32,000 nucleotides of DNA, from assembly GCA_900540545.1 (NCBI GenBank), contig UQGJ01000014.1:11801-43800 (forward strand), written 5' to 3'. The translations under genes were made by a program, and so were the position numbers. The DNA is from an uncultured Eubacteriales bacterium. Lineage in GTDB: Bacteria; Bacillota; Clostridia; Oscillospirales; Oscillospiraceae. Positions 194-31,190 of this stretch are shown in pieces. Position 1 is the stretch's first letter. Every line of letters starts with the position of its first letter. Below the pieces are notes generated by a model that had not been told where the DNA came from, made no database searches, and was given only the letters and a program-made list of their open reading frames with translations.

Positions 194-463
194 GTGGAAC
201 GGAGAGAATGGGCGGTGAAACGTATGGAAGAATCTCAGAGGGAACAGTGGGCTAAGATATTTGGGGAAAATGTGCGGAGACTTCGGGAAAAAGAGGGAAT
301 CAGTGTGGCTGAGTTTGCAAAATACTTACATATTTCTCAGGAGCGGCTGACTCGGTTGGAGGAAGGGGTGATTGATAAGAGATTGAGCATGTCCGTGGTG
401 TTTGCGATTGCCGGGCGGTTCCATCTGAAGGAATATCAGCTGTTTGAGCGGGGAGACGTTTGA
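194..463 (+). CDS. XRE-family helix-turn-helix transcriptional regulator (alternative ATG start at 224)
   Basis: The 89-aa ORF contains FGENVRRLREKEGISVAEFAKYLHISQERLTRLEEG, a classic HTH_3 pattern. It is divergent from the partial HTH gene at 1-85. Low GC. Confidence 0.75.
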   Translation: MERREWAVKRMEESQREQWAKIFGENVRRLREKEGISVAEFAKYLHISQERLTRLEEGVIDKRLSMSVVFAIAGRFHLKEYQLFERGDV

Positions 464-1300
464 GGTCCAGGGGCGGGGCCCCTGCCGGGGGCGGAGTCCC
501 TCCGGGGGGGCCCCTTTCTTCTCGAAGAAAGGGGACGGAAAGAAGGACCGGGGGCGGCACGGGCCACGCTGTGTCCCTATCCGCCGCCCCCTGGACCCCA
601 GAGAACGTCCGGGCGGCGGTACGGTTTATGTTTGTTGGCAAAACCAGAAAGCCGTTGCAGCTCGTATTGGTCTGGCGCTGGAACAACTCCGGCTGCCGCC
701 CCTCGGCATATCACCGGGCAAGACTTGGGAGTCGTTGCGTTTTACTCGGTGCAAACAAGCCGCCACAGGGTCTGTGCGGTTTTGAATTGGCTTTGCGCCT
801 GTTGGGAGTCGGCACGGGCGGCTGATAGCCGCCCCTACAAGAAAGAGACCTTCGGTTTCCCCTGTCCTACGTCCCCCGCAGGGTAGGCTTCTCCACTTGT
901 GGGTTGGCTGCCCGTTGGCGGCTTTGCCGCTTACGGGCAGCTCATGCCCTAGGGGTAGAAGCTGTCGCGCCGTTAGGCGTGACTGATGGGGTGTTACGCT
1001 GAGGGCTTGGTGGTAATCGCCCCATCCGTCACGGGCTACGCCCGTGCCACCTTCCCCACAAGTGGAGAAGGCTACGCCTGCGGGCGGGACGGGGGAAATG
1101 CACTAGCCTTGCCGGGTACTGCCATGCTAGGCGCGCTGCGCCAGCGCATGGGGGGTGACCAACTGCGTGATAGGCCGTAACGGCCGGGGCAGAAGCGGAA
1201 AGGCAGACTTGTTAGCACTAGCCGGTTTCGACTGCCTTGCTTCGTTGGCGCCGCCCCTCGCTCCTTTTTCTTTGGGCCCCCAACCCGTTTCTTTTTCCCG
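464..1300 (+). repeat. Copy A of the non-coding hairpin-mosaic repeat family (longest copy, with nested insertions and a degenerate right end)
   Basis: Aligns module by module with the reverse complement of 18881-19556 and with 30876-31190. Shared runs include GGCGGCGGTACGGTT, GAACAACTCCGGCTGCCGCCC and GGTGCAAACAAGCCGCCAC. No ORF is conserved across copies. Confidence 0.8.
816..838 (-). repeat. REP-like unit: GTAG head plus 8-bp GC hairpin (read on the minus strand)
   Basis: GGGCGGCT-GAT-AGCCGCCC is followed by CTAC (835-838). On the minus strand this reads GTAG immediately 5' of the hairpin. It is homologous to 19212-19236. Confidence 0.5.
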
Positions 1301-1576
1301 CCAGGGACCCACCGAAGGTGGGACGCGGCTTCGCCGCGTACAAGTGTTTTGGCCCACAGGCCAAAACCTTGGAATAGGGCGAATTCACTTCGCCCTATTC
1401 TGTTGAAATCACGGGGTCCCCGTGCGGCCTTGGCCGCATGGGGCTAAAAGAAATGGGCTGGGCCCCCGGAGGGGGACGCTCCAAACTCCCGTCCCCGCCC
1501 GTAAGCGGATAAAATCCGCACCGACAGGCGCCGCCTTAAAAAAGAACCGGACAGCCTTTTAGGCTGTCCGGTTCCA
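1300..1576. repeat. Train of eight short near-perfect hairpins
   Basis: Stems lie at 1308-1322, 1324-1338, 1346-1367, 1372-1400, 1418-1443, 1472-1496, 1505-1519 and 1544-1574. Stems are 5-14 bp with 3-5 nt loops in most. Confidence 0.55.
1538..1574 (-). terminator. Rho-independent terminator (minus strand)
   Basis: A 14-bp perfect stem GAACCGGACAGCCT/AGGCTGTCCGGTTC with loop TTT. On the minus strand it is followed by TTTTTT (the A-run at 1538-1543). Confidence 0.75.
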
Positions 1577-1580
1577 ATGC

Positions 1581-1618
1581 TGGAGCAGGTGACGAGGCTC
1601 GAACCCGCTATCCCACCC
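1581..1618 (-). pseudogene. 3' fragment of tRNA-Gly (anticodon-stem 3' half through CCA), direct repeat of 1732-1769
   Basis: The first 24 nt (TGGAGCAGGTGACGAGGCTCGAAC on the + strand) are identical to the 3' end of the intact tRNA, and similarity continues to about 38 nt. No matching 5' acceptor strand is present. Confidence 0.65.
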
Positions 1619-1635
1619 CGGACCTCTGGATTTGA

Positions 1636-1659
1636 AAAATGCGGTTACACCGCATTTTG
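1636..1659 (-). terminator. Terminator-like hairpin downstream of tRNA-Gly
   Basis: The minus strand reads AAAATGCGG-TGTAA-CCGCATTTTT: a 9-bp stem followed by a T-run, with an A-run on the other side, so it may act bidirectionally. Confidence 0.55.
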
Positions 1660-1660
1660 G

Positions 1661-1682
1661 GTGGAGGCAGCGAGTTCGAGTG
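1661..1682 (+). pseudogene. Inverted partial tRNA-Gly copy (anticodon-stem 3' half to T-loop)
   Basis: The + strand GGTGGAGGCAGCGAGTTCGAG matches the sense sequence of the minus-strand tRNA (GGTGGAGGTAGCGAGTTCGAG) at all but one position. Confidence 0.5.
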
Positions 1683-1731
1683 GTTTGGATGCAGAAACAG
1701 CACCCACCGAAGTGAGTGCTGTTTCTAATGC

Positions 1732-1807
1732 TGGAGCAGGTGACGAGGCTCGAACTCGCTACCTCCACCTTGGCAAGGTGGCGCTCTACCAGATGAGCTA
1801 CACCTGC
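1732..1807 (-). tRNA. tRNA-Gly (anticodon GCC), CCA encoded
   Basis: The 76-nt cloverleaf was folded by hand: acceptor GCAGGTG/CACCTGC, D stem GCTC/GAGC, anticodon stem CCACC/GGTGG with loop TTGCCAA, T arm GCGAG-TTCGAGC-CTCGT, then T-CCA. Confidence 0.92.
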
Positions 1808-6836: not shown

Positions 6837-8570
6837 TTATTCCGGCAGACCAATGACGCCGGTTTGGAAGAGGGCGTCGTCCAGACCGCTTGCCTTGCGG
6901 TTGCGGAGGTAATCTTTATAATAATGAGCTCGGGGGAGGGACATCCAGTATTCGTAGGTATCGGGTAACGCTCCGTCGTGGCTTTTTTTCAATTCCGCTT
7001 CATACCGTTCTCTGGCGGCATAGATATCATTCCGGGCCCACCAGTTATAGCCATCCAGATAGTTCAGATAGAATTCGTCCCAGTCGGAGAAGGTCTCCTG
7101 TGCCATTCGTGCGGCGGGTTCCACAAGTTCCAGGGCATCCTCATAGGTAAGGTAGCCCGCGGTGTAGCCCCACTGCGCCATACTGGACATCCGGGATAAG
7201 TCCCAGGCCAGAATGCCCTTCTCCCCCCACCGCTCACTGATTTCCTTGGTGTAGAGCCACATGTATCGGTCGGTTTCGCCAGACGAGGCGACGAGCGCGG
7301 CAAACTCCTGGTCAGTGAGGCCATTGGTAATTTCGGCGGCCTCCTGAAAACTGTCGTTGTGGCCGTGGGGGGTCATACGCTGGATCAGGGGAATGATGTC
7401 CTCGCGGCCTGTGACGCCCCAGTTGGTTGCCAAGCCATCCCGGGTGCCCTTTACGGATTCCGCGGTGCGCTCATACATACCGAAGAAGATAGGTTTTCCG
7501 ACGGGCGCGGGAAGGCCGTATTCTGCGCCGTAATACTGGTATCCGTAAATCAGGCCCATGGACACAGCCCAGTCCTCCAGATTTGAACCCTCTGCCACCG
7601 ATTTGTCCTCGGTGATGAGTACCCGACTGTCCTTCCCATCCCACGCTACTTTTTGACCAAAGAATTCGGCCACATAGCGGGCGGGGATGAGGGTGTGGCC
7701 CTCGGTGGCGTAGGGGGCCACGTCCATCTCCACCGGCTTGTCGTCCACAGTGGCGGTGGTGCTGCCCAGAGTCATGGTGACGGTGGACCCGGCCCGGGTC
7801 ATCACGATTTCCTGGGTATCCGGTACCCATTCCACATCGGCGCCCAATGCCTCGGCCACAGCTCGGATGGGCACCATGGTGCGGCCGTTGTGGGCTTCAA
7901 GGGCCACATCCATCTTGATTTGCGCCCCATCCAGGAATATCTTCAGAGTCTTTCGGTCCGCCCGGCAGGCTTCCAGTCCAGCGATTACCTTGTCCTTCGT
8001 GGTTTGGGAGGCCAGATACATATACTTTCCAGACAGGAGATCCTCCGTAGTCATACCAAGGTAATCCAGCGCGTCCACCACGCGGCCCCAGCCATCCGCC
8101 GGACCGGGGCTTGAACTCTGGTATACGATGCGGGCACGGCTTTCCTCCACCACCATGTGGTAATAGAGTTCGTCCGGCTCGTGGGTCTGGAGCCATTGTT
8201 CTTCACACCAGAGGAGGTTGTTATACATGGAATAAAAGCAACCACGTGTATCGGGAGTATTGCCGAAACCATAATTGTCTCCGCATTTGATTCTGATGAG
8301 GGCAAGTTCATAGCAGGCCCCAATAGAACTTTTTTTCAGGCCCTCCTCAGGCTCTATTTTCTTCGCTCCGTTTCTTGCCGTCTCCCGAAGAGCCTCAATT
8401 TTAGTCCAGGTTTCGGGGAGGTAGACGGGATCTCCAGGAAATACAATGTAGTCCCCTTGATCGATCCACTCAGGCGTAACGGGGATCACAGGGGTCTCCG
8501 CGGCCAGGGCGGGGGCGGACAGGGAGAGCGCCAGTGAGAGGCACAGCAGGAGCGAACACAGCTTTTTCAA
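6837..8570 (-). CDS. Secreted protein P1: signal peptide + variable Cys-containing N-domain + copper-amine-oxidase-N-like stalk domain + DUF1266-like C-domain
   Basis: TTG start with AAGGAGG RBS. Signal peptide MKKLCSLLLCLSLALSLSAPALA-AE. Stalk motif NGRTMVPIRAVAEALGADVEWV...TLIPARYVAEFFGQKVAWDG. DUF1266-like ILAWDLSRMSSMAQWGYTAGYLTYEDALELV...SDWDEFYLNYLDGYNWW. Confidence 0.88.
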   Translation of the reverse strand: MKKLCSLLLCLSLALSLSAPALAAETPVIPVTPEWIDQGDYIVFPGDPVYLPETWTKIEALRETARNGAKKIEPEEGLKKSSIGACYELALIRIKCGDNYGFGNTPDTRGCFYSMYNNLLWCEEQWLQTHEPDELYYHMVVEESRARIVYQSSSPGPADGWGRVVDALDYLGMTTEDLLSGKYMYLASQTTKDKVIAGLEACRADRKTLKIFLDGAQIKMDVALEAHNGRTMVPIRAVAEALGADVEWVPDTQEIVMTRAGSTVTMTLGSTTATVDDKPVEMDVAPYATEGHTLIPARYVAEFFGQKVAWDGKDSRVLITEDKSVAEGSNLEDWAVSMGLIYGYQYYGAEYGLPAPVGKPIFFGMYERTAESVKGTRDGLATNWGVTGREDIIPLIQRMTPHGHNDSFQEAAEITNGLTDQEFAALVASSGETDRYMWLYTKEISERWGEKGILAWDLSRMSSMAQWGYTAGYLTYEDALELVEPAARMAQETFSDWDEFYLNYLDGYNWWARNDIYAARERYEAELKKSHDGALPDTYEYWMSLPRAHYYKDYLRNRKASGLDDALFQTGVIGLPE

Positions 8571-8696
8571 CGGGGAGACCTCCTTTTTATCCGGGGGACT
8601 GCAAAAATACGGCGCTGTGGAGGGTGTTCCAGGTTCGGGCGCAGCCCAGAACCGGGGGCGAAACGAGAAGCGGAACCCTATTCGCCGTGACCGTAT
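8571..8696 (-). promoter_or_regulatory. Conserved ~125-nt structured leader/intergenic element upstream of P1 (paralogous copy at 10413-10532)
   Basis: A long-range stem AAATACGG / CCGTATTT encloses about 75 nt, including the hairpin GGTTC(T)GGGC-TGC-GCCCGAACC. On the minus strand it is followed by TTTTT and then the RBS. Confidence 0.35.
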
Positions 8697-10412
8697 TTAC
8701 TCAGGTAAACCGATGACGCCGGTTTGGAAGAGGGTGTCGTCGAGCTGAGAGAAGTTCTTGATGGAGATGTAGAAATTTGCGCGGGGCTGCTCCATCCAAG
8801 TCTCCCAGTTGCCGGGGACCTGCATACTGCTGGTGGCCATTCTGGCCTCATATTCCGCCATGATTGTGGCCACGTCGTTGCGGGCCCACCAGTTGTAGCC
8901 GTCCAAATAGTTCATATAGAACTCGTCCCAGCTGGTGAATGTCTCCTGGGTCAGTCGGGCGGCGGGCTCCACCAGTTCCAGAGCCTCGGCGTAGGTGAGA
9001 TACCCGGCCGTATAGCCCCATTGGACCAGCGTTCCCATCCGGGAGAGGTCCCAGGCCAGGATGCCCTTGTCGCCCCACCGCTGGCTGAGCTGCTTGGTAT
9101 AGGGCCACATATACTTGTCGGTCTCGCCGGAGGCGGCGACAAGAGCGGCGAACTCCTGGTCGCTGAGGCTGTTAGCGATGGCGGCGGCCTCCTGGAAGGA
9201 GTCGTTGTGGCCGTGGGCGGTCATGCGGGTGACCAGCTCGATCAGGTCCTGGCGGTTTTGCACGCCCCAGGCGGAGACCAGGGAATTCCGGGTATTCTGG
9301 ACCTGCTGGGCGGTGCGCTCAAACTGGCCGAAGCGGACCTGGCTGTCCCGGTAATAAGAGGCGACGCCCAGGTCGATTTTATTCCGAATCAGCCCCATGG
9401 CTATGGCCCAAGCCTCCAGGTTGGAACTCTCCGCCACAGACTTGTCCTCATTGATCAATACCTGGTGCTTGATTCCGTCCCAGTCCACCGTTTGTCCGAA
9501 GAACTCGGCCACATAGCGGGCGGGGATGAGGGTGCGGCCCTCGGTGGCGTAGGGGGCCACGTCCATCTCCACCGGCTGGCCGTCCACCGTGGCGGTGGTG
9601 GAGTCCAGGGTCATGGTGACGGTGGAGCCGGCCCGTGTGAGGACGATTTTTTGTCCCTCTGGCACCCAGGTCACGTCGGCGCCCAGGGCCTCGGCCACGG
9701 CGCGGATGGGCACCATGGTGCGGCCGTTGCGGGCCTCCGGGGGCACGTCCATGGACAGCTCATTGCCGTCCAGCCAGATTTCGATATGGTTGAAGTAGGC
9801 GCCCCATCCGGCGGCCACCTCGGCCCGGAGGGTCTCCTGTTCCTCGGCGGTGAAAATCTCGGTGTCGGTGAGCTGATTGAGGGTGAACTGGGGAAATTCC
9901 AGCAGATAGGGGATGTATGCGTAGAGTTGTTCGCCCACGCCATAATTGCGCAGAACACCCCGGGCGGCCCACAGCAGCAGGACATATTTCTGCTGGTCGG
10001 TGAGACCCTCCAAAAGTGCGCTCGTCCCGTCTTCCAAGTAGTAGGACAGGTGGACATCGTGAGGGGTTTTTACGCCGTTGTTATTCCGAATCAGGCGGAG
10101 CTCCAGCAGCGCCCGCTCGAACAACACACCCATATCAAAGGAGTTGTCCGACCGCCGCTCGGGCAGGGCGTTAAAGTCCTTGAGCATGGGCAGGGTGGCG
10201 TTGCTGACGGGACCCCACCGCACAATCTCCCGGATGTCGGTGATGACCTTCCAGTGCTCCGGCTCATAGGCGGCGGAACCGGGGAAGACGGCGTACTCCT
10301 CCTCGGGACACCAGGGGGGAGGCGTGGGGGTGACGGCCTCCGCGGCCAGGGCGGGGGCGGACAGGGAGAGCGCCAGGGAGAGACACAACAGGAGCGAACA
10401 CAGCTTTTTCAA
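8697..10412 (-). CDS. Secreted protein P2, paralogue of P1 (signal peptide + variable N-domain + stalk domain + DUF1266-like domain)
   Basis: The signal peptide is identical to that of P1. It has the same stalk and DUF1266-like motifs and the same C-terminal tail LFQTGVIGLPE. Confidence 0.88.
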   Translation of the reverse strand: MKKLCSLLLCLSLALSLSAPALAAEAVTPTPPPWCPEEEYAVFPGSAAYEPEHWKVITDIREIVRWGPVSNATLPMLKDFNALPERRSDNSFDMGVLFERALLELRLIRNNNGVKTPHDVHLSYYLEDGTSALLEGLTDQQKYVLLLWAARGVLRNYGVGEQLYAYIPYLLEFPQFTLNQLTDTEIFTAEEQETLRAEVAAGWGAYFNHIEIWLDGNELSMDVPPEARNGRTMVPIRAVAEALGADVTWVPEGQKIVLTRAGSTVTMTLDSTTATVDGQPVEMDVAPYATEGRTLIPARYVAEFFGQTVDWDGIKHQVLINEDKSVAESSNLEAWAIAMGLIRNKIDLGVASYYRDSQVRFGQFERTAQQVQNTRNSLVSAWGVQNRQDLIELVTRMTAHGHNDSFQEAAAIANSLSDQEFAALVAASGETDKYMWPYTKQLSQRWGDKGILAWDLSRMGTLVQWGYTAGYLTYAEALELVEPAARLTQETFTSWDEFYMNYLDGYNWWARNDVATIMAEYEARMATSSMQVPGNWETWMEQPRANFYISIKNFSQLDDTLFQTGVIGLPE

Positions 10413-10532
10413 AGGAAAGACCTCCTTTTTATCCGTGGGACTGCAAAAATACGGCGCTGTGGGGGGTGTTCCAGGTCCAGCCCAGAACTGGGGACGAAAC
10501 GGGAAGCGGGACTCGCTCGCCGTTGACCGTAT
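10413..10532 (-). promoter_or_regulatory. Second copy of the conserved leader (upstream of P2)
   Basis: Aligns with 8571-8696, sharing AAATACGG...GCGCCGTATTTTTGCAGTCCC.CGGATAAAAAGGAGGTC. The internal hairpin carries a short deletion. Confidence 0.35.
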
Positions 10533-11666
10533 TTACTCCAGCAGGCCGATGACGCCGGTTTCGAAGAGGGTATCGTCGAAGATGGGGGCCAGGTCGGGGT
10601 CGGCCTTCATCTCCAGATAGAGCTTGCCCCGGGCGCTCTCCCACACGTTCTGGTCCAGGCCGTTACTCTTGGACCACCAAGTGTAGCCGTCCAGATAGTT
10701 TTCATAGGCCTCGTCCCAGGAGGAGAAATTCTCGCTCAGGAGGGTGGCGGCGGGCTCCAGCAGCAGGAGGGCCTCCTCATAGGTCACGTACCCGGCGCTG
10801 TAACCCCACTGGACCAGATTGCTCATGCGGAACAGATCCCAGGCGAGGATGCCGCGGTCTCCCCACTTTTCGTCCAGGGCAGACGTGAACTCCCACATAT
10901 AGGGGGGCCAGTCGAAGGACGGATTGCTGGCGGCCTGGGCATCCAGGGCGGCCTTTTCCTCCGCCGTCAGGTTCCTCGCATCCTCTGCGGCGCTGAAAAA
11001 CGTGGCGTTATGGCCATAGAAGGTCATACTCAGGACGGACTCCACCAAATCGTCCCGTTCCGGGATGTTCCAAGAGCTGCCGCTCAGCACCCGGGCGCTC
11101 TGCTTTGCGGTGGACGCGCTCCGGCGGTACAGGCCGAACCAAGCCGGGCTTCCCTGGTTGAGCTTCGCCAGCATGGCCCCCATGGGGAGGGCCCACGCCT
11201 CCAGGTTGGAGTCCCCCACCACCGATTTGTCCTCGGCAATGTCCACCCGGCGGGCCTCGCCGTCCCAGGCCACGGTCTGGCCGAAGAATTCGGCCACATA
11301 GCGGGCGGGGATGAGAGTGCGGCCCTCGGTGGCGTAGGGGGCCACGTCCATCTCCACCGCCACGCCGTCCACGGTGGCGGTGGTGGAGTCCAGGGTCATG
11401 GTGACGGTGGAGCCGGCCCGGGTCATCACGATCTCCTGGGTGTCCGGCACCCATTCCACGCCGGCGCCCAATGCCTCGGCCACGGCGCGGATGGGCACCA
11501 TGGTGCGCTCGCTGCGGACCTCCGGCGGGACATCCAGTTTCAGTTCCCGGTCATCCAGGAAGAGCTTGATGCCGCCGTCCTCTTGCGCCGCCTCCGCGGC
11601 CAGGGCGGGGGTGAGGAGGGGACAGGCCAAGGCCAAGGTCAGGATCACCGCCAGCAGCTTTTTCAT
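10533..11666 (-). CDS. Secreted protein P3: signal peptide + stalk domain + DUF1266-like domain (no variable N-domain)
   Basis: Internal ATG at 11666 with RBS GGAAAGGAG. Signal peptide MKKLLAVILTLALACPLLTPALA-AE. The Pro/Ser/Arg-rich upstream extension to 11810 is rejected. C-terminal tail LFETGVIGLLE. Confidence 0.85.
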   Translation of the reverse strand: MKKLLAVILTLALACPLLTPALAAEAAQEDGGIKLFLDDRELKLDVPPEVRSERTMVPIRAVAEALGAGVEWVPDTQEIVMTRAGSTVTMTLDSTTATVDGVAVEMDVAPYATEGRTLIPARYVAEFFGQTVAWDGEARRVDIAEDKSVVGDSNLEAWALPMGAMLAKLNQGSPAWFGLYRRSASTAKQSARVLSGSSWNIPERDDLVESVLSMTFYGHNATFFSAAEDARNLTAEEKAALDAQAASNPSFDWPPYMWEFTSALDEKWGDRGILAWDLFRMSNLVQWGYSAGYVTYEEALLLLEPAATLLSENFSSWDEAYENYLDGYTWWSKSNGLDQNVWESARGKLYLEMKADPDLAPIFDDTLFETGVIGLLE

Positions 11667-11700
11667 GATTGACTCCTTTCCAGTCGGGGGGGATACGGAT

Positions 11701-14649
11701 TTAGAAATCCAGCTCGTCCCAGGGGATGATTTTGGCGTTCTCAGGGGGGAGGGCGGCGGGGGGCGCGGAGACCTCCTTGGACTCGGAGGAGGCGGTGACG
11801 GTGAAGTCAAACTGGTTCTTATAGTGGACCTCGCCGGTCAGGGTCTGCTTTCCGCCGGCGCTCTTGGCGTCCATGGTGATTTGGAAATCCACGAAGCGAC
11901 CCAGGGTCCGGCCGGGGCGCATATCCATCTCCATGGCGTAGTCGCCGTTGTCGTGGACGGTGACGGTGAAGGCGCAGGCCCGGAAGGCGTCCTCGCCGTC
12001 CAGAGGGTCGTAGGAGTAAGGGACATCAGGGTCCGGGGCGGTGAGGTCCCGGATGAGGTCGTTGACGGTCTTGGTGTCCAGGGAGTAGGTCAGGGCGTTG
12101 CCCGCGCGGGTGAAGCGGCCGTCGCCCAAGAGGAGCGCCACCTGGTCGGCCTGCTCCAGCAGGCCGGCGTAGCTGTCCACGCCTACGGGGTCATAGTAGG
12201 ACCACTTCAGGCGGCGTGCGATGACGCTGTCGTAGAGCATGGCGCCCACGTTGAGGAGGGGGAGGGAGTCCACGGTGCCGTCCTTGTCCACGGTCTCGGT
12301 GGGCAGGGCCGCGCCGGGGGTCACGTAGAAGGGATAGAAGGAATCCAGGTCCATGGAGACCCAGTCGTCCTTGCCCACCGACTCGTCCAGCAGAGAGAAC
12401 AGGGGGGACTGGAGGTACAGGAGCTGGGTGTCCACGTTCCAGTAGAGCTTAAAGGTGGTGGACTTCAGCAGGGTCTTGAGGGTGGAGAGGCTGAACTTGG
12501 CTTCGCTCTGGTCCAGCATCTTCTGAACGTCGGCCCAGTCCTCCTTCGTAAGCTGGGAGAGGACCCCGGCCAGGTCCAGCTTGAGCTCGCACTCCATGGA
12601 GCCCTTGCCGGCCACGGTGGTGGCGTCGATTTTCACGGTGTAGGTCCTGTCGCCGTCCAGGCTGTTGAACAGGGTCAGGTCGATGGTCTCGCTGGAGGTG
12701 GTGCGGATGTTCCGCTGGGCGGTGTCCACCGCCTTGCCCAGCAGGGTGGAGAGCATCCGGTCGATTTGGGTAAAGTTTTGATTCAGCTCCGCGGCGATGG
12801 CCTCAGGGTCGAAGAGGACGGCGGTATCGTAGCCCGCGTCCCAGGCCAGGCCGCAGCCGAAGGCATCGGCCAAATCCCGGAGGGGGACGTAGGTGCGGCC
12901 GTCCTCGGCAAAGGCGGGGGAACTCATGGTGTATTTGCGGTCCTTGCCGTCGGTGGTGAGGGTGTACTTTTTGCCCTCCAGGGGGAAGGTCACGGTGACG
13001 CCGCCCTTGTCGCAGACGGCGGCGTTGGTGGTCTCGTCAAAGGAGACGGTATAGCCCAGGGCTTCGGCCAGGGCGCGGACGGGGATCATGGTGCGGTCGT
13101 TCCGGGCCACGGGCTTGGCGTCGGGGAAGGAGAGGTAGGCCCCGTTGAGCATGACGCTGAGCTCGCCGGGGACGCCGCCCAGCTCCCGCTTGTGGGCGTC
13201 CCGCTGGGCCTTGGCCTCGGCGTTGGCAGCCCGGTCGGCCTTCCAGCTCTCGTAGAGGGCGGCGTAGGCGGACTCCTTCACGGTAAGGTAGTTATCGTCC
13301 ATGTAGTCCTGGAGACTGGTATAGCGGGGATAGTAGTGGGAGGCGTTATACTCGCCGGACTGGAACCAGCGCTCCACGTCGGCCACGAAGGCGGCGGTGT
13401 CCTCGGGCTCGGCGGCCTGGAAGGCGGCCCACTGGTCCTGGGCGGCCTGGGCGGCCTCCTGCTCCTGGATCATGTAGTAGAGCATCTCGGTACGGAACTG
13501 CTCCTCGCTGTCGGTGGTGGGAGCCAGCTCCATATACTCCTGCTTGGAGTCATAGTAGCGGTCGGCGTTATAGACTTCCTTGAAGTACTGGTCGGCGTCG
13601 AAGGCGGCGAATTCCTCCGGGTGTTCCGCGGCCCAGGCGTCCACCTCGGCCTGCATATCCGCGTTTGCGGCCTGCGTATCCAGCATGTCCAGGAGCATGG
13701 CCAGCCGGAATTCTTCCTCGGTATCAAGGCGATAGGCGTCCATATATTCTTCTTTGTCGCCGTAATAGGGATAATGCGTTTCCAGCCAGGCGTCGGCGTC
13801 GAAAGCGGCGTACTCGTCGGGGTGGGCGGCGCTCCATGCGTCGGCCCGGGCCTGGCGCCGCTCGGCGCCCACCTGGCTCTGCACCCACAGCCAGGTCATC
13901 TGGCGCAGGAATTCCTCCTCCGTGGCGTACCCGTAGGAGGACATGTACTCTTCCATGGTCCAGTAGCTGTAAGTATCCTCAAAGAACTCCATGGGGTCGA
14001 ACTCGGCAAATTCCTCCGGGTGTTCGGCGGCGTAGGCGTCGATGTCGGTTTGCTGTTCGGCGGCGGTCTCCTGCTCCTGGATCATGAAGTAGAGCATCTC
14101 GGCGCGGAACTGCTCCTCGCTGTCGGTGATGGGAGACATCTCCATAAACTCCTGCTTGGAGTCATAGTAGCGGTCGGCGTTATAGACTTCCTTGAAGTAC
14201 TGGTCGGCATCGAAGGCGGCATACTCCTCCGGGTGTTCGGCGGCCCAGGCGGCCACCTTCTCCTGGATCATGCCCGTCCAATACTGCTCGGAGAGCCAGT
14301 CCTCCCGCATGTTTTCCTGGAAATCGGCCTCGGTATAGAGGTCGAAGTAATACATATAGTCCTTCTTGGCGTAGTAGCTGCCGTAGCGCGCTGTGAACCA
14401 GCCGTCGGCGTCGAATTCGGCGCTGTGGGCGGCCCAGTAGGCGTCTTTCCAGGCTGCGGCGTCGGCTGCCTCCTGAGCCTGTTCGCCGTACTCGTCCTCG
14501 GTCATGTACTGGCGCTCCAGCATGTCTTCCAGGGAGGTATAGCCGCGCTCCTTCCAGAGGGGTGGATCGGTGTCCTGGTACGCCAGGGCGGGGGCAAAAA
14601 GAGTGCAGGACATTGCCAGGGTCAGGACCAGCGCCAGCAGTTTTTTCAT
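11701..14649 (-). CDS. Large secreted protein P4: signal peptide + six ~62-aa acidic/aromatic repeats + stalk domain + ~380-aa unassigned C-domain
   Basis: 982 aa. Signal peptide MKKLLALVLTLAMSCTLFAPALA-YQ. The repeats resemble AWAAEHPEE(Y/F)AAFDADQYFKEVYNADRYYDSKQE.ME...TDSEEQFR.EMLY.MIQEQE. Stalk motif NDRTMIPVRALAEALGYTV...GRTYVPLRDLADAFG. Confidence 0.85.
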   Translation of the reverse strand: MKKLLALVLTLAMSCTLFAPALAYQDTDPPLWKERGYTSLEDMLERQYMTEDEYGEQAQEAADAAAWKDAYWAAHSAEFDADGWFTARYGSYYAKKDYMYYFDLYTEADFQENMREDWLSEQYWTGMIQEKVAAWAAEHPEEYAAFDADQYFKEVYNADRYYDSKQEFMEMSPITDSEEQFRAEMLYFMIQEQETAAEQQTDIDAYAAEHPEEFAEFDPMEFFEDTYSYWTMEEYMSSYGYATEEEFLRQMTWLWVQSQVGAERRQARADAWSAAHPDEYAAFDADAWLETHYPYYGDKEEYMDAYRLDTEEEFRLAMLLDMLDTQAANADMQAEVDAWAAEHPEEFAAFDADQYFKEVYNADRYYDSKQEYMELAPTTDSEEQFRTEMLYYMIQEQEAAQAAQDQWAAFQAAEPEDTAAFVADVERWFQSGEYNASHYYPRYTSLQDYMDDNYLTVKESAYAALYESWKADRAANAEAKAQRDAHKRELGGVPGELSVMLNGAYLSFPDAKPVARNDRTMIPVRALAEALGYTVSFDETTNAAVCDKGGVTVTFPLEGKKYTLTTDGKDRKYTMSSPAFAEDGRTYVPLRDLADAFGCGLAWDAGYDTAVLFDPEAIAAELNQNFTQIDRMLSTLLGKAVDTAQRNIRTTSSETIDLTLFNSLDGDRTYTVKIDATTVAGKGSMECELKLDLAGVLSQLTKEDWADVQKMLDQSEAKFSLSTLKTLLKSTTFKLYWNVDTQLLYLQSPLFSLLDESVGKDDWVSMDLDSFYPFYVTPGAALPTETVDKDGTVDSLPLLNVGAMLYDSVIARRLKWSYYDPVGVDSYAGLLEQADQVALLLGDGRFTRAGNALTYSLDTKTVNDLIRDLTAPDPDVPYSYDPLDGEDAFRACAFTVTVHDNGDYAMEMDMRPGRTLGRFVDFQITMDAKSAGGKQTLTGEVHYKNQFDFTVTASSESKEVSAPPAALPPENAKIIPWDELDF
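13240..14465 (-). repeat. Intragenic tandem repeats of P4 (six units); units 2 and 5 are near-identical at DNA level
   Basis: 14069-14256 versus 13457-13646 show about 13 mismatches in about 190 nt by eye. The other units are recognisable only at protein level. Confidence 0.7.
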
Positions 14650-15137
14650 GTTTGACTCCTTTCCAGTCGCGCGGAAGGATTTTGCACGATGTACGAGCGG
14701 GTCTCCGAGAGGTCCTGGGGGTTGCGGAGGATGTGGTCGTAGTAGTCATCCTGCCACACGGGCTTTCCCCATGTTCGGGTGGTAAAGCCCTTCAAGGCAT
14801 TGATGACCTGTGGCAGTGATGTAGGGGCCGCCGACCCCGGTGGCCCGTCTCCGGTCAATTGTATCAACAGGTGGACATGGTCCGGCATAATGATATATTG
14901 GTCTACATGGACATCGGGGTAAGCACAGTCAATGCCTTGAATCAACTGGTCTACAATCTGGCCTAAAGGGGTGAGCTGAAGCCGCGGGCCGCCGGGGTCG
15001 GCGGCCCCTACGGGCAGAAGAGAGGAAAAGATGTTTTGGTTTCTGACCTTGGCGCAGATGGTGACGAAATAAAATCCGGGCTGGGAATAATCGTAATGCT
15101 TCAAATGGTGATATTTGCGCACCGGATATGGGTTCAT
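14646..15137 (-). CDS. Y1/HUH transposase-like protein (IS200/IS605 TnpA fold; RayT / REP-associated tyrosine transposase-like), apparently orphan
   Basis: ATG at 15137 with GAGGTG RBS. HUH motif in IIMPDHVHLLIQ, the family pattern GKPVWQDDYYDHILRN, and a candidate catalytic Tyr in TRSYIVQNP. Its stop overlaps the P4 start (ATGA). Confidence 0.82.
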   Translation of the reverse strand: MNPYPVRKYHHLKHYDYSQPGFYFVTICAKVRNQNIFSSLLPVGAADPGGPRLQLTPLGQIVDQLIQGIDCAYPDVHVDQYIIMPDHVHLLIQLTGDGPPGSAAPTSLPQVINALKGFTTRTWGKPVWQDDYYDHILRNPQDLSETRSYIVQNPSARLERSQT

Positions 15138-18878: not shown

Positions 18879-18880
18879 GT

Positions 18881-19556
18881 CCGCCTGCGGGCGGGGAGGG
18901 GGGGGAGCGACCCCCTCCGGGGGTGTCGCCTCCGGCGGGGGTCCTCTTTCTCATTTGAGAAAGAGGACGGAAAGAAAACCAGGGCCGCGGCCCTGGACCT
19001 AGGGGCGGCGCCAACGGGGCTTGGGGGTTGAGACCGGCTTGTGGGGACAAGTCTGCCTTTTTGCTTCCGCCCCGGCCGTTACGGCCTAATGTGCGGTTGG
19101 TCCACCTGTTGCGCTGGCGCGGCGCGCCTAGCGTGGCGAGTCCCGGCAAGGCGGGTGCAGAGACGGGCCGCCGAGGTCGGCGGCCCCTACGGCATGAGCC
19201 GAAGGTCTCTTGTAGGGGCCGCCCACTGGGCGGCCCGTGCAGACTGGCGATAGGCGCAAGACCCCGTAAAAGGCGCATAAACCTTGTGGCGGCTTGTTTG
19301 CACCGAGTAAAACGCAACTATTATCAAGTTTTGCCGGGTCATATGCCGAGGGGCGGCAGCCGGAGTTGTTCGGGCGCGTGCCAATACCGGGCTGCAACGG
19401 CTTTCAAGTCTTGCCAGCAAACGTGAACCGTACCGCCGCCCGGACGTTCCCTGGGTCCAGGGGGCGGCGGATAGGGCATTGAAAATGCCCGTGCCGCCTC
19501 CGGCCCTTCTTTCCGTCCCCTTTCTTCGAGAAGAAAGGGGACCCGCCGGAGGCCCC
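18881..19556 (-). repeat. Copy B of the hairpin-mosaic repeat family (inverted relative to A and C), bounded by ~55-bp terminal inverted repeats
   Basis: Ends 18929-18983 and 19500-19552 are inverted copies: CCTCCGGCGGG.TCC-[CTTTCT..AGAAAG palindrome]-GACGGAAAGAA. The interior is collinear with the reverse complement of copy A. Confidence 0.8.
19165..19236. repeat. REP/BIME-like doublet: two GTAG-headed GC hairpins in inverted orientation
   Basis: 19165-19190 is GGGCCGCCG-AGGT-CGGCGGCCC-CTAC, which has a GTAG head on the minus strand. After a 21-nt linker, 19212-19236 is GTAG-GGGCCGCCC-ACT-GGGCGGCCC. Confidence 0.55.
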
Positions 19557-30875: not shown

Positions 30876-31190
30876 GGACAAGGGCGCGGCCCCTGCCGGG
30901 GGCGTTCCTTTCTCATTTGAGAAAGGAACCGAAAGAAAACCAGGGGGATGACACGGGGAACTTTGTTCCCCTATCGTCATCCCCCTGGACCCCGGGAACG
31001 TCCTGGCGGCGGTACGGTTTTCGGGGGCTGGCAAGACTTGAGAGCTGTTGCAGCTCGGATTGGTCTGGCGCTGGAACAACTCCGGCTGCCGCCCATCGGC
31101 ATATGACCTGGCAAGATTTGTGAGCAGTTGCGTTTTTCTTGGTGCAAACAAGCCGCCACCAGTCTCAGAGTCCCCCGTCCCCCGCAGGGA
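30876..31190 (+). repeat. Copy C of the hairpin-mosaic repeat family (left end plus core only)
   Basis: It starts about 8 nt after the stop codon, as copy A does (GGCCCCTGCCGGGGGCG). It has a 12-bp palindrome at 30904-30929, a two-tier hairpin at 30943-30985, and a core collinear with A 590-775. Confidence 0.8.

Follow-up and report, generated by a model that had tools for sequence, protein, structure and literature searches.

The stretch of DNA considered here (the window: 32,000 nucleotides (nt) of contig UQGJ01000014.1, from an uncultured Oscillospiraceae bacterium) encodes a V-type ATPase A subunit 92% identical to that of Intestinimonas butyriciproducens, and carries a cluster of hairpins near its left edge. 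A model working from the letters alone (the sequence-only reading) had proposed that hairpins at positions 505-600 recur in further repeat copies with altered stem sequences and unaltered pairing. We find that window 505-600 is the left terminal module of a non-coding repeat, copy A, and consists of a first hairpin (H1), a purine-rich linker, a two-tier second hairpin (H2) and the motif GGACC. Its letters are GGGGGGG-CCCCTTTCTTC-tc-GAAGAAAGGGG-ACGGAAAGAAGGACC-GGGGGCGGC-ac-GGGCCAC-gct-GTGTCCC-tatcc-GCCGCCCCC-TGGACCCC.

Anatomy and genomic setting of the repeat

Six copies of the repeat were collected: A, B and C in the window, and D, E and F just outside it in the same lineage (metagenome-assembled genome (MAG) GCA_902470985.1; contigs other than that of the window carry L numbers). 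They range from 0.3 to 1.05 kb and together make up approximately 7.8% of about 50 kb of DNA. The features of the six copies are as follows; window positions are given without a contig name, and GTAG-tagged REPs are repetitive extragenic palindromes carrying that tetranucleotide.

464-1510, plus strand: copy A, approximately 1045 nt, the longest copy, with extra nested inserts (self-comparison, alignment with B and C)
504-599, plus strand: left terminal module of A, ending CTGGACCCC (sequence, fold, covariance-model match of 101.7 bits)
511-521/524-534, plus strand: H1 of A (sequence and fold)
535-549, plus strand: linker of A, ACGGAAAGAAGGACC (sequence)
550-558/583-591, plus strand: outer stem of H2 of A (sequence and fold)
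561-567/571-577, plus strand: inner stem of H2 of A, with one C·T mismatch (sequence and fold)
600-766, plus strand: sequence-conserved core of A, GAACGTCC.GGCGGCGGTACGG ... GGTGCAAACAAGCCGCCAC, non-coding (alignments; indel in D)
816-838, minus strand: nested GTAG-tagged REP hairpin in A, GTAGGGGCGGCTATCAGCCGCCC on the minus strand
856-1098, no strand: long palindromic insert of approximately 240 nt, in copy A only (inverted self-matches)
1099-1264, plus strand: right-hand conserved block, also in B, D and E (inverted self-repeats, blastn)
1412-1510, plus strand: degenerate right end of A, a hairpin, an TAAAAGAAATGG linker and an CCCCCGGAGGGGG hairpin (covariance-model match of 24.3 bits, E=0.002)
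18880-19556, minus strand: copy B, full length at approximately 680 nt, inverted relative to A, with both terminal modules (self-comparison)
18933-19001, plus strand: right-end module of B, with H1 at 18941-18953/18956-18968, linker ACGGAAAGAAAACC and a short H2 at 18979-18996 (58.1 bits, covariance model)
19160-19236: nested inverted GTAG REP doublet in B, with units at 19160-19190 (minus) and 19212-19236 (plus) and a 21-nt spacer, resembling a REPIN (a pair of inverted REPs)
19452-19548, minus strand: left-end module of B, with H1 at 19515-19542 and the H2 inner stem at 19474-19480/19484-19490 (101.9 bits, covariance model)
30876-31165, plus strand: copy C, truncated after the core, beginning right after the stop codon of a gene for a 55-aa protein
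30898-30993, plus strand: terminal module of C (100.7 bits, covariance model)
30904-30915/30918-30929, plus strand: H1 of C
30943-30952/30976-30985 and 30955-30961/30965-30971, plus strand: outer and inner stems of H2 of C
L005:14375-14990: copy D
L005:16510-17145: copy E
L047:1318-1985: copy F

The full copies B, D, E and F measure approximately 640-680 nt and share one order of parts. Their 5' part runs through short G/C hairpins, H1, the purine-rich linker, H2, GGACC and a core of approximately 190 nt; the 3' part holds an inverted GTAG REP doublet, a second conserved block of approximately 160 nt and an inverted H2-linker-H1 module. H1 pairs a pyrimidine arm with a purine arm over 10-13 bp around a fixed CTTTCT/AGAAAG centre, and the linker has the consensus (A/C)CG(G)AAAGAA(GGRCC/AACC). 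H2 takes either a two-tier form, in which an outer stem of approximately 11 bp and an inner stem of 7 bp enclose an AC...TATC internal loop, or an alternative form with one short stem of 6-8 bp. Self-comparison shows the ends of B to be inverted hairpin-and-linker repeats (38 nt at 82%), and the left end of B to match that of A in inverted orientation over 66 nt at 94%. The right-end sequence ...CCCCGCCCG(T/C)A(A/G)GCGGA is common to copies A and B, and the right end of A (1412-1510) is a weak module variant in direct orientation. The core is conserved in sequence, although its centre is replaced in F by an unrelated G+C hairpin. Folded whole as RNA, copy B gives z = -7.8, with none of 20 shuffles folding as well, and its two linkers and outer ends pair. 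Around the palindrome of copy A (window 839-1110) the fold reaches -167 kcal/mol, and this insert looks like a separate hairpin element lodged in the repeat.

Copies occur in both orientations relative to their flanking genes and fill whole spacers, from the upstream stop codon to approximately 20 nt before the next start codon. Spacers within operons are occupied as well, in the arrangements hydrolase-[F]-aroE and thiI-[E]-cinA-[D]-matE. Five contigs from the MAG or metagenomes (L006, L007, L008, L046 and L048) end at the repeat, as expected of short-read contigs that meet a dispersed repeat.

The repeat is non-coding. Copy D has gained 1 nt within its best-conserved block, no open reading frame in the repeat matched Pfam and a six-frame query found no matching called protein among 5.8 billion. 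Protein coding was therefore rejected, and with it coding as an explanation of the kept pairing, in agreement with the sequence-only reading. A known RNA family was likewise rejected: in Rfam 15, only a tRNA-Gly in the window passed the gathering threshold, and nothing came near threshold in window 400-1750 at E values up to 10. Other candidates were rejected as well. The hairpin GGTACGGTTC resembles domain V of a group II intron, but neither Intron_gpII nor D1-D4 matched and the hairpin geometry is wrong. A riboswitch-like alternative, in which the 3' arm of H2 pairs with the downstream GTCCGGGCGGCGG or with the long-range partners proposed by RNAalifold, breaks in C for both pairings, while the local H2 is compensated. 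The helices that RNAalifold predicts for the cores of A-E either do not vary or are disrupted in C, F or G, the last a copy from a sister species, and the alignments revealed no covariation in favour of a folded core. Since the promoter-like hexamers of B are not kept in A, C, D or E, a conserved internal promoter was rejected too.

The 3' arm of H1 with the linker (window 511-549 and its equivalents) resembles a Shine-Dalgarno sequence (AGAAAGGGG, GGAAAGAAGG), and the opposite H1 arm, CCUCUUUCU on the 5' side, is similar to the 16S rRNA 3' terminus. No suitably spaced start codon lies downstream of the 3' arm and linker.

Pairing and sequence change in the terminal hairpins

A covariance model of H1-linker-H2 was built from the six left ends and searched against all loci examined. 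Besides three additional genomic copies and the inverted right ends, a second strain, three sister lineages and a prophage supplied further modules. The resulting alignment holds 14 distinct modules: six left ends, four right ends, the right end of D in a second strain (L060), copy G of the sister species (L058:200-298, minus strand) and solitary modules at the C site of L049 and of L056. Weaker model matches were ordinary terminators.

The observation of compensatory hairpin changes is confirmed and extended by this set. The stems that the sequence-only reading had quoted from A, B and C all exist where it placed them, including the REP-like stems at 816-834 in A and 19216-19236 in B, which proved to be true GTAG-tagged REPs. 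Two of its details need amending. The H1 stem is real, but its proposed 2-nt loop is sterically impossible, so that H1 is effectively a stem of 10-13 bp with a 4-nt loop; and the hairpin called 'B-left' (18943-18953/18956-18966), though genuine, is the right-hand end of an inverted copy rather than another left end. The mirroring of arm changes on the partner arm, which that reading had proposed to test with more copies and a covariation statistic, held when 11 further modules were added, and the covariation is strong. Among 348 cells, 95.4% are paired, against 74.9 ± 1.5% in shuffled alignments, and 22 of the 30 pairs have changed on both sides, against 12.0 ± 2.0; none of 500 shuffles reached either value. 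Cells with double changes number 68 and those with a single change (G·U) only two. Covarying pairs are spread over all three helices (11/12 in H1, 6/11 in the H2 outer stem and 5/7 in the H2 inner stem). These counts are somewhat biased toward structure, as the alignment was fitted to the covariance model. Independently of any alignment, all 12 of the modules first collected fold singly into H1 and H2 with both RNA and DNA parameters, while window 495-605 folded as DNA gives z = -2.4 (1/200 shuffles as good). Copy G, at approximately 70% identity, shows the same covariation pattern, as do the solitary modules from the prophage and L056.

The sequence-only reading had allowed that the pairs might arise only from low-complexity GC runs. 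H1 does set a pyrimidine tract against a purine tract, and the H2 outer stem contains GGGGG/CCCCC, sequences that can pair trivially. Sliding the partner by one column in either direction nevertheless lowers pairing from 95% to 60-63% of cells and the pairs with double changes from 22 to 6-8; the pairing is thus specific to its register and does not simply follow from runs of G/C or of purines and pyrimidines. The shuffles never reached the observed values, and the H2 inner stem (CATT/AATG, CCAC/GTGG, GAAC/GTTC or GATC/GATC) is not of low complexity. We regard a chance origin of the pairing as negligibly probable.

Among copies A-E, identity is 78% in stems, 78% at unpaired module positions and 86.5% in the core, so the stems are as diverged as unpaired positions and yet stay paired. 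Orthologues of D in two strains differ at 9.6% of positions, compared with 7.6% at the four-fold degenerate sites of the adjacent cinA, and the sole H1 stem change between them is a double change from T-A to G-C. The H1 and H2 stems thus keep Watson-Crick pairing through double substitutions at an approximately neutral rate, and the data support the view that structure is kept, rather than sequence or coding. Switches in pair type are of the transversion type (CG/GC, UA/AU, GC/UA) in about half of the cases; such switches cannot pass through a wobble intermediate. Cells that are not Watson-Crick comprise two G·T, four A·C and 12 others of the 348; G·T is not in excess over A·C in the module stems.

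Copies are also mosaic. The modules of E and F are 88% identical and their cores 66%, and H1 and H2-inner subtypes have been re-assorted among A, B, D and E. Both ends of F (L047 1339-1364 and 1918-1945) share an A-to-G change in the H1 pair nearest the loop, giving CTCGTTTGAG for CTCATTTGAG, which hints at copying between the ends of one element. Such observations raise the question of whether selection on structure is needed at all, or whether mutational mechanics suffice, through templated correction of quasi-palindromes or module replacement among a few ancestral variants. Stems that evolve as fast as unpaired positions, common transversion-type double changes with very rare intermediates, the mosaicism and the identical changes at the two ends of F are all as such an account would have them. 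It has difficulty with the persistence of the two-hairpin architecture, CTTTCT/AGAAAG, the linker and GGACC at approximately 50-70% identity in other species and a prophage, which is hard to understand without constraint, and with the AC...TATC internal loop of the two-tier H2, kept while both of its stems change. We consider mutational mechanics unlikely to be the whole explanation; as they too need DNA folding, they complement the folded-strand interpretation favoured below rather than excluding it. Hairpin-templated copying and module exchange probably help to keep the arms complementary. The proposal of the sequence-only reading that selection acts on secondary structure therefore stands as regards the kept pairing, but not with selection as the only process, since templated correction and module exchange also mirror changes between arms.

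That reading had left open whether single-stranded DNA or RNA is the folded molecule. The pattern of change suggests that Watson-Crick complementarity is constrained equally on both strands, unlike the classical stepwise compensation of RNA helices. The balance tips towards DNA, or a constraint on both strands, because wobble pairs are nearly absent and copies occur in either orientation: the ends appear to be constrained as folded single strands, with DNA more likely than a strand-specific RNA.

The competing view is that H1-linker-H2 is a cis-acting RNA under purifying selection (for example a 3'-end stabiliser, processing site or terminator), the repeats persisting through their usefulness in operon spacers. 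Its attraction lies in position as well as in the strong covariation. Modules abut the stop codons of an xre-family gene (A), the gene for the 55-aa protein (C, L049 and L056), a pyruvate:ferredoxin oxidoreductase gene (G) and xkdQ (the prophage). At their right ends, copies D, E and F likewise abut the stop codons of cinA, thiI and the hydrolase gene; these three copies have co-directional genes on either side, and transcription must run through them. Facing outward, each end presents a G+C hairpin followed by UUUUCUUUCC, and H2 with UUUUCUUUCC is terminator-like; the short H2 is followed outward by TTTTCTTTCC, and the right end of B was flagged as terminator-like on the minus strand by a consensus scan, while A, B and D show only CCTTCTTTCC outward of their left ends. 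On this sequence evidence, the elements may terminate or stabilise flanking transcripts as a side effect. As a primary function, an RNA role sits poorly with the scarcity of wobble pairs, with G·T no commoner than A·C, with the half of all switches that are impossible via G·U, and with copies that point either way with respect to transcription. Were the modules strong terminators, those directly before aroE, cinA or matE (a MatE-family transporter gene) would block these genes. The sites are, moreover, empty in close relatives, where the element is thus not needed, and no Rfam family matched. We judge selection on an RNA improbable as the main explanation, though worth keeping in view.

Insertion history, nested REPs and a RAYT-like gene

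Relatives lack the repeat at orthologous sites. L056 (90% V-ATPase A identity) has an empty B site, in which the stop codon of an SLH-domain gene is followed by 123 nt and then marR, whose promoter TTGACG...GATATG is kept in all three species compared. The E site is empty in L058 (83% CinA identity), where the thiI stop, 30 nt and the cinA ATG follow one another. No copy was found in the syntenic regions of I. butyriciproducens or in the other Intestinimonas loci examined. L049 and L079 have a different repeat family at the same spacers, with ends CTCCCCTA(C/G)TAGGGGAG; the same spacers are thus colonised by different families in different lineages. This second family is MITE-like (resembling miniature inverted-repeat transposable elements), has palindromic ends and was seen at L049 2674-2925 and at L079 3504-3700 and 495-690, covering the B and E sites.

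The repeat is therefore a multi-copy element, present in both orientations, absent from orthologous sites in relatives and mosaic between copies. The most conventional explanation would be a classical MITE, that is, a deletion derivative of an insertion sequence (IS) with a DDE transposase, whose ends are bound as double-stranded DNA and whose hairpins are incidental palindromic sites. Terminal inverted repeats on a small, non-coding, multi-copy body are indeed present, as are intergenic placement and polymorphic occupancy. Against this, no target-site duplication was found at flanks or empty sites, and none of the frames holds the remains of a transposase gene. Two separate hairpins make up each of the ends, which are unusually long, and a double-stranded site would be expected to conserve sequence, whereas here stem sequence is free and pairing is kept. 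A classical MITE is accordingly, in our view, quite doubtful.

Beyond the six copies, the module has a wider distribution than the composite. Scans with conserved 20-mers gave four chance matches in genome contigs and 36 chance matches in metagenome contigs, and DNA-pattern scans of plasmids and GenBank phages gave no match. Viral contigs scanned with the type-2/3 linker also yielded nothing, but the type-1 H1-linker motif recovered five, each with a solitary module directly after a tail gene:

L062 8600-8684 (also L061, L063, L065 and L067): prophage solitary module directly after xkdQ, in a hairpin-rich non-coding spacer of approximately 700 nt

The order here is a further hairpin (H0), H1 (CCCCTTTCTTC/GAAGAAAGGGG), linker and H2 (AAAGAGGGGG/CCCCCTCTTT), within a PBSX-like tail cluster whose host is I. 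butyriciproducens by exact protein matches (XkdQ/YqbQ, ALP94628). The solitary module of L056 is followed by the same ACCAATCAGGGGG... hairpin as the prophage module. The module is thus found across the genus, while the 640-nt composite was encountered nowhere but in L058 and the lineage of the window.

Other hairpin modules occur in the same surroundings. At L005 16232-16507, an insertion of approximately 200 nt of hairpin modules lies in the first codons of cinA, and approximately 38 nt of the cinA start are duplicated; the complete cinA copy downstream starts with TTG and has its ribosome-binding site supplied by the insert. Two modules of this insert, GGGCGAATTCACTTCGCCC and GGGGTCCCC...GGGGC, are also present in the right part of copy A (window ~1370-1445). 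A long-hairpin module of approximately 85 nt, AGAACAAAC ... GTTTGTTCT, is found inside F (L047 1795-1885), beside H1 at the C site of L049, at the D site of L058 (9883-10008) and in prophage contigs; its loci were L047 1795-1885, L049 2779-2859 and 14680-14782, L058 9883-10008, L061 and L065.

The nested stems at 816-838 and 19160-19236 are short, G+C-rich imperfect palindromes with a GTAG tag, as REPs are. GTAGGGG with a stem of 8-9 bp occurs in the window at 838(-), 14821(+), 15011(-), 19190(-) and 19212(+), and elsewhere at L005 14723/14745, L047 1679/1701 and L060 1918/1940. Doublets of the REPIN form (...CCCCTAC, a 21-nt spacer, GTAGGGG...) are present in B, D, F and L060. The REP stem is GGGCGGCT/AGCCGCCC in A and E and GGGCCGCCC/GGGCGGCCC in B, D and F, with two compensated positions. 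The H1/H2 modules themselves lack the GTAG tag; a CGTC that overlaps the stem on the other strand occurs in no subtypes but 1 and 3, and C, E, F, the right end of D, L056 and G do not have it. Two of the window's tagged stems lie inside a gene:

14646-15137, minus strand: gene for a Y1 (HUH) transposase resembling REP-associated tyrosine transposases (RAYTs) (Pfam Y1_Tnp 24.4 bits, cut-off 23)

The product scores 53.3 bits with NCBIfam REP_Tyr_transpos, below the cut-off of 80, matches E. coli TnpA-REP (PDB 4er8) at E=0.003, carries the motifs HUH and WQ..YYDH.IRN...YI..NP, and is the single member of its 90%-identity cluster. The gene lies between gyrB and a Cu_amine_oxidN1 gene. Two inverted GTAG REP palindromes (14821-14847 and 14985-15011) stand in frame inside its coding sequence rather than flanking it, and encode VGAADPGGP and GDGPPGSAAPT. 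From its sequence, this protein is a candidate enzyme for the nested GTAG REPs.

Two neighbouring features were seen in passing. Window 6837-14649 (minus strand) is a tandem array of Cu_amine_oxidN1 and DUF1266 paralogues with a period of approximately 1.84 kb and 75-94% DNA identity, which accounts for most of the 'direct repeat' families of the window. Adjoining copy A is a minus-strand tRNA-Gly(GCC) with a 33-nt near-exact copy of its 3' half (features at window 1577-1610 and 1732-1807), which has the look of an att-site scar or a tRNA pseudogene. An integrative element at this tRNA was rejected, as the duplicate lies only approximately 120 nt from the gene and is unlinked to the repeat.

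Relation to known repeats and possible mode of spread

The repeat shares features with several known classes. Like REPs, REPINs and bacterial interspersed mosaic elements (BIMEs), it consists of extragenic hairpin repeats, often in inverted pairs and mosaic clusters, sited after stop codons, with structure kept while stems differ between families; nested GTAG doublets and a RAYT-like gene are present. It is unlike them in that H1 and H2 lack GTAG, with a CGTC-like tag in some subtypes only, and the unit of approximately 640 nt, with its conserved non-palindromic core, greatly exceeds REPs and REPINs in size. Most REP/RAYT systems described so far come from Proteobacteria; here the host belongs to the Clostridia, and the RAYT-like gene is not flanked by H1/H2 modules. 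Bacterial MITEs (Correia/NEMIS, ERIC, RUP, MITEAba12 and others), which sometimes act as terminators or mRNA stabilisers, resemble it in being short, non-coding and RNA-foldable, with inverted ends and many intergenic copies. They differ in that neither a target-site duplication nor a parent IS was found at the loci examined here, and in that the present ends are two hairpins whose stems vary freely. The subterminal hairpins of IS200/IS605-family elements are recognised as single-stranded DNA. These ends, and those of palindrome-associated transposable elements (PATEs), are comparable in their subterminal hairpins, lack of target-site duplication and HUH Y1 enzyme, but theirs are direct hairpins on one strand with a fixed tetra- or pentanucleotide target, whereas the ends here are inverted and no such target was seen. 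Pneumococcal BOX elements (boxA-boxB-boxC; PMC3049150) are likewise modular, intergenic, predicted to form stem-loops and transcribed with their neighbours; they have no sequence relation to the present repeat, no long conserved core and no nested REPs.

Di Nocera et al. 2013 (PMC3733652) described GTAG REPs, including REPs inside genes, long inverted ends that combine a REP with an unrelated stem-loop, and Y1 transposases bordered on both sides by double palindromic inverted repeats (the TIRtron). These REP-plus-stem-loop ends and the TIRtron are the closest published analogues. The repeat described here falls among the structured, probably mobile mosaic repeats of bacterial intergenic DNA, for which pairing kept through mirrored changes is typical. 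It stands apart in combining inverted ends of two hairpins with a large conserved core and with REPINs nested inside.

Our preferred interpretation, held with slightly better than even confidence, is that this is a new mosaic repeat family of REP/BIME/MITE-like type, non-coding and modular, which has colonised the intergenic spacers of an uncultured Intestinimonas and whose ends work as folded single strands. How the repeat spreads, and with which partner enzyme, we infer from its structure and distribution. The ends would act as folded single-stranded DNA, recognised or processed during spread. There is precedent for this, in that REP hairpins are recognised as folded single-stranded DNA by RAYT Y1 transposases, as are IS200/IS605 ends by TnpA. 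End recognition would then need the shape and a few fixed bases (CTTTCT/AGAAAG, GGAAAGAA and GGACC), and not the stem sequence, while hairpin-templated copying and the exchange of modules between copies would help to keep the arms complementary.

Several observations weigh against this interpretation. Only approximately 60 kb of the genome and a few sister loci were covered, so the 14 modules are not independent events; they fall into few discrete subtypes, and many of the compensatory counts may trace to a handful of ancestral variants. No gene flanked by H1/H2 modules was found in the loci examined, and hence no autonomous partner; for the RAYT-like gene, which the modules do not flank, the cognate-looking hairpins are the GTAG REPs. 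Solitary modules (A, the C site, G and the prophage) always follow a stop codon in the H1-to-H2 sense, which could suggest an RNA role. Neither the flanks of A, B, D, E and F nor the empty sites revealed a consistent target-site duplication or target motif. Filled and empty sites share only short words at chance level (AACGA, ACAAA); left flanks end in TCCA, ACAA, TAGC, GAAA, CAAA and TTGA, without a fixed tetra- or pentanucleotide, and TTAC, which D, E and F have in common on the right, represents the stop codon of the adjacent gene. The lack of a target-site duplication fits an HUH mechanism, yet is equally plain absence of evidence.

A bolder possibility, which we think distinctly unlikely, is that H1-linker-H2 is the recognition structure of a new mobilisation system of the Clostridia, or that the core is a mobile non-coding RNA gene set between outward-facing terminators. 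The mobiliser could be an HUH/Y1 enzyme distinct from the GTAG-RAYTs, or host replication and repair acting on folded DNA. It would move or copy a large non-coding cargo, the 190-nt core plus the REPINs, and could deposit solitary modules in prophages as well.

Returning to the family as a whole, its terminal modules provide unusually clean evidence that shape rather than sequence persists at the ends of an element, and their wobble-free, transversion-rich pattern of change offers a route to tell DNA-level from RNA-level constraint. To our knowledge, REPs, BIMEs and MITEs are well studied in Proteobacteria and hardly at all in gut Clostridia. The lineage described here spends approximately 8% of a 50-kb stretch on one structured repeat family, whose copies break its short-read assemblies and, where they lie between the essential operon genes (aro, thiI-cinA), may alter their transcription.

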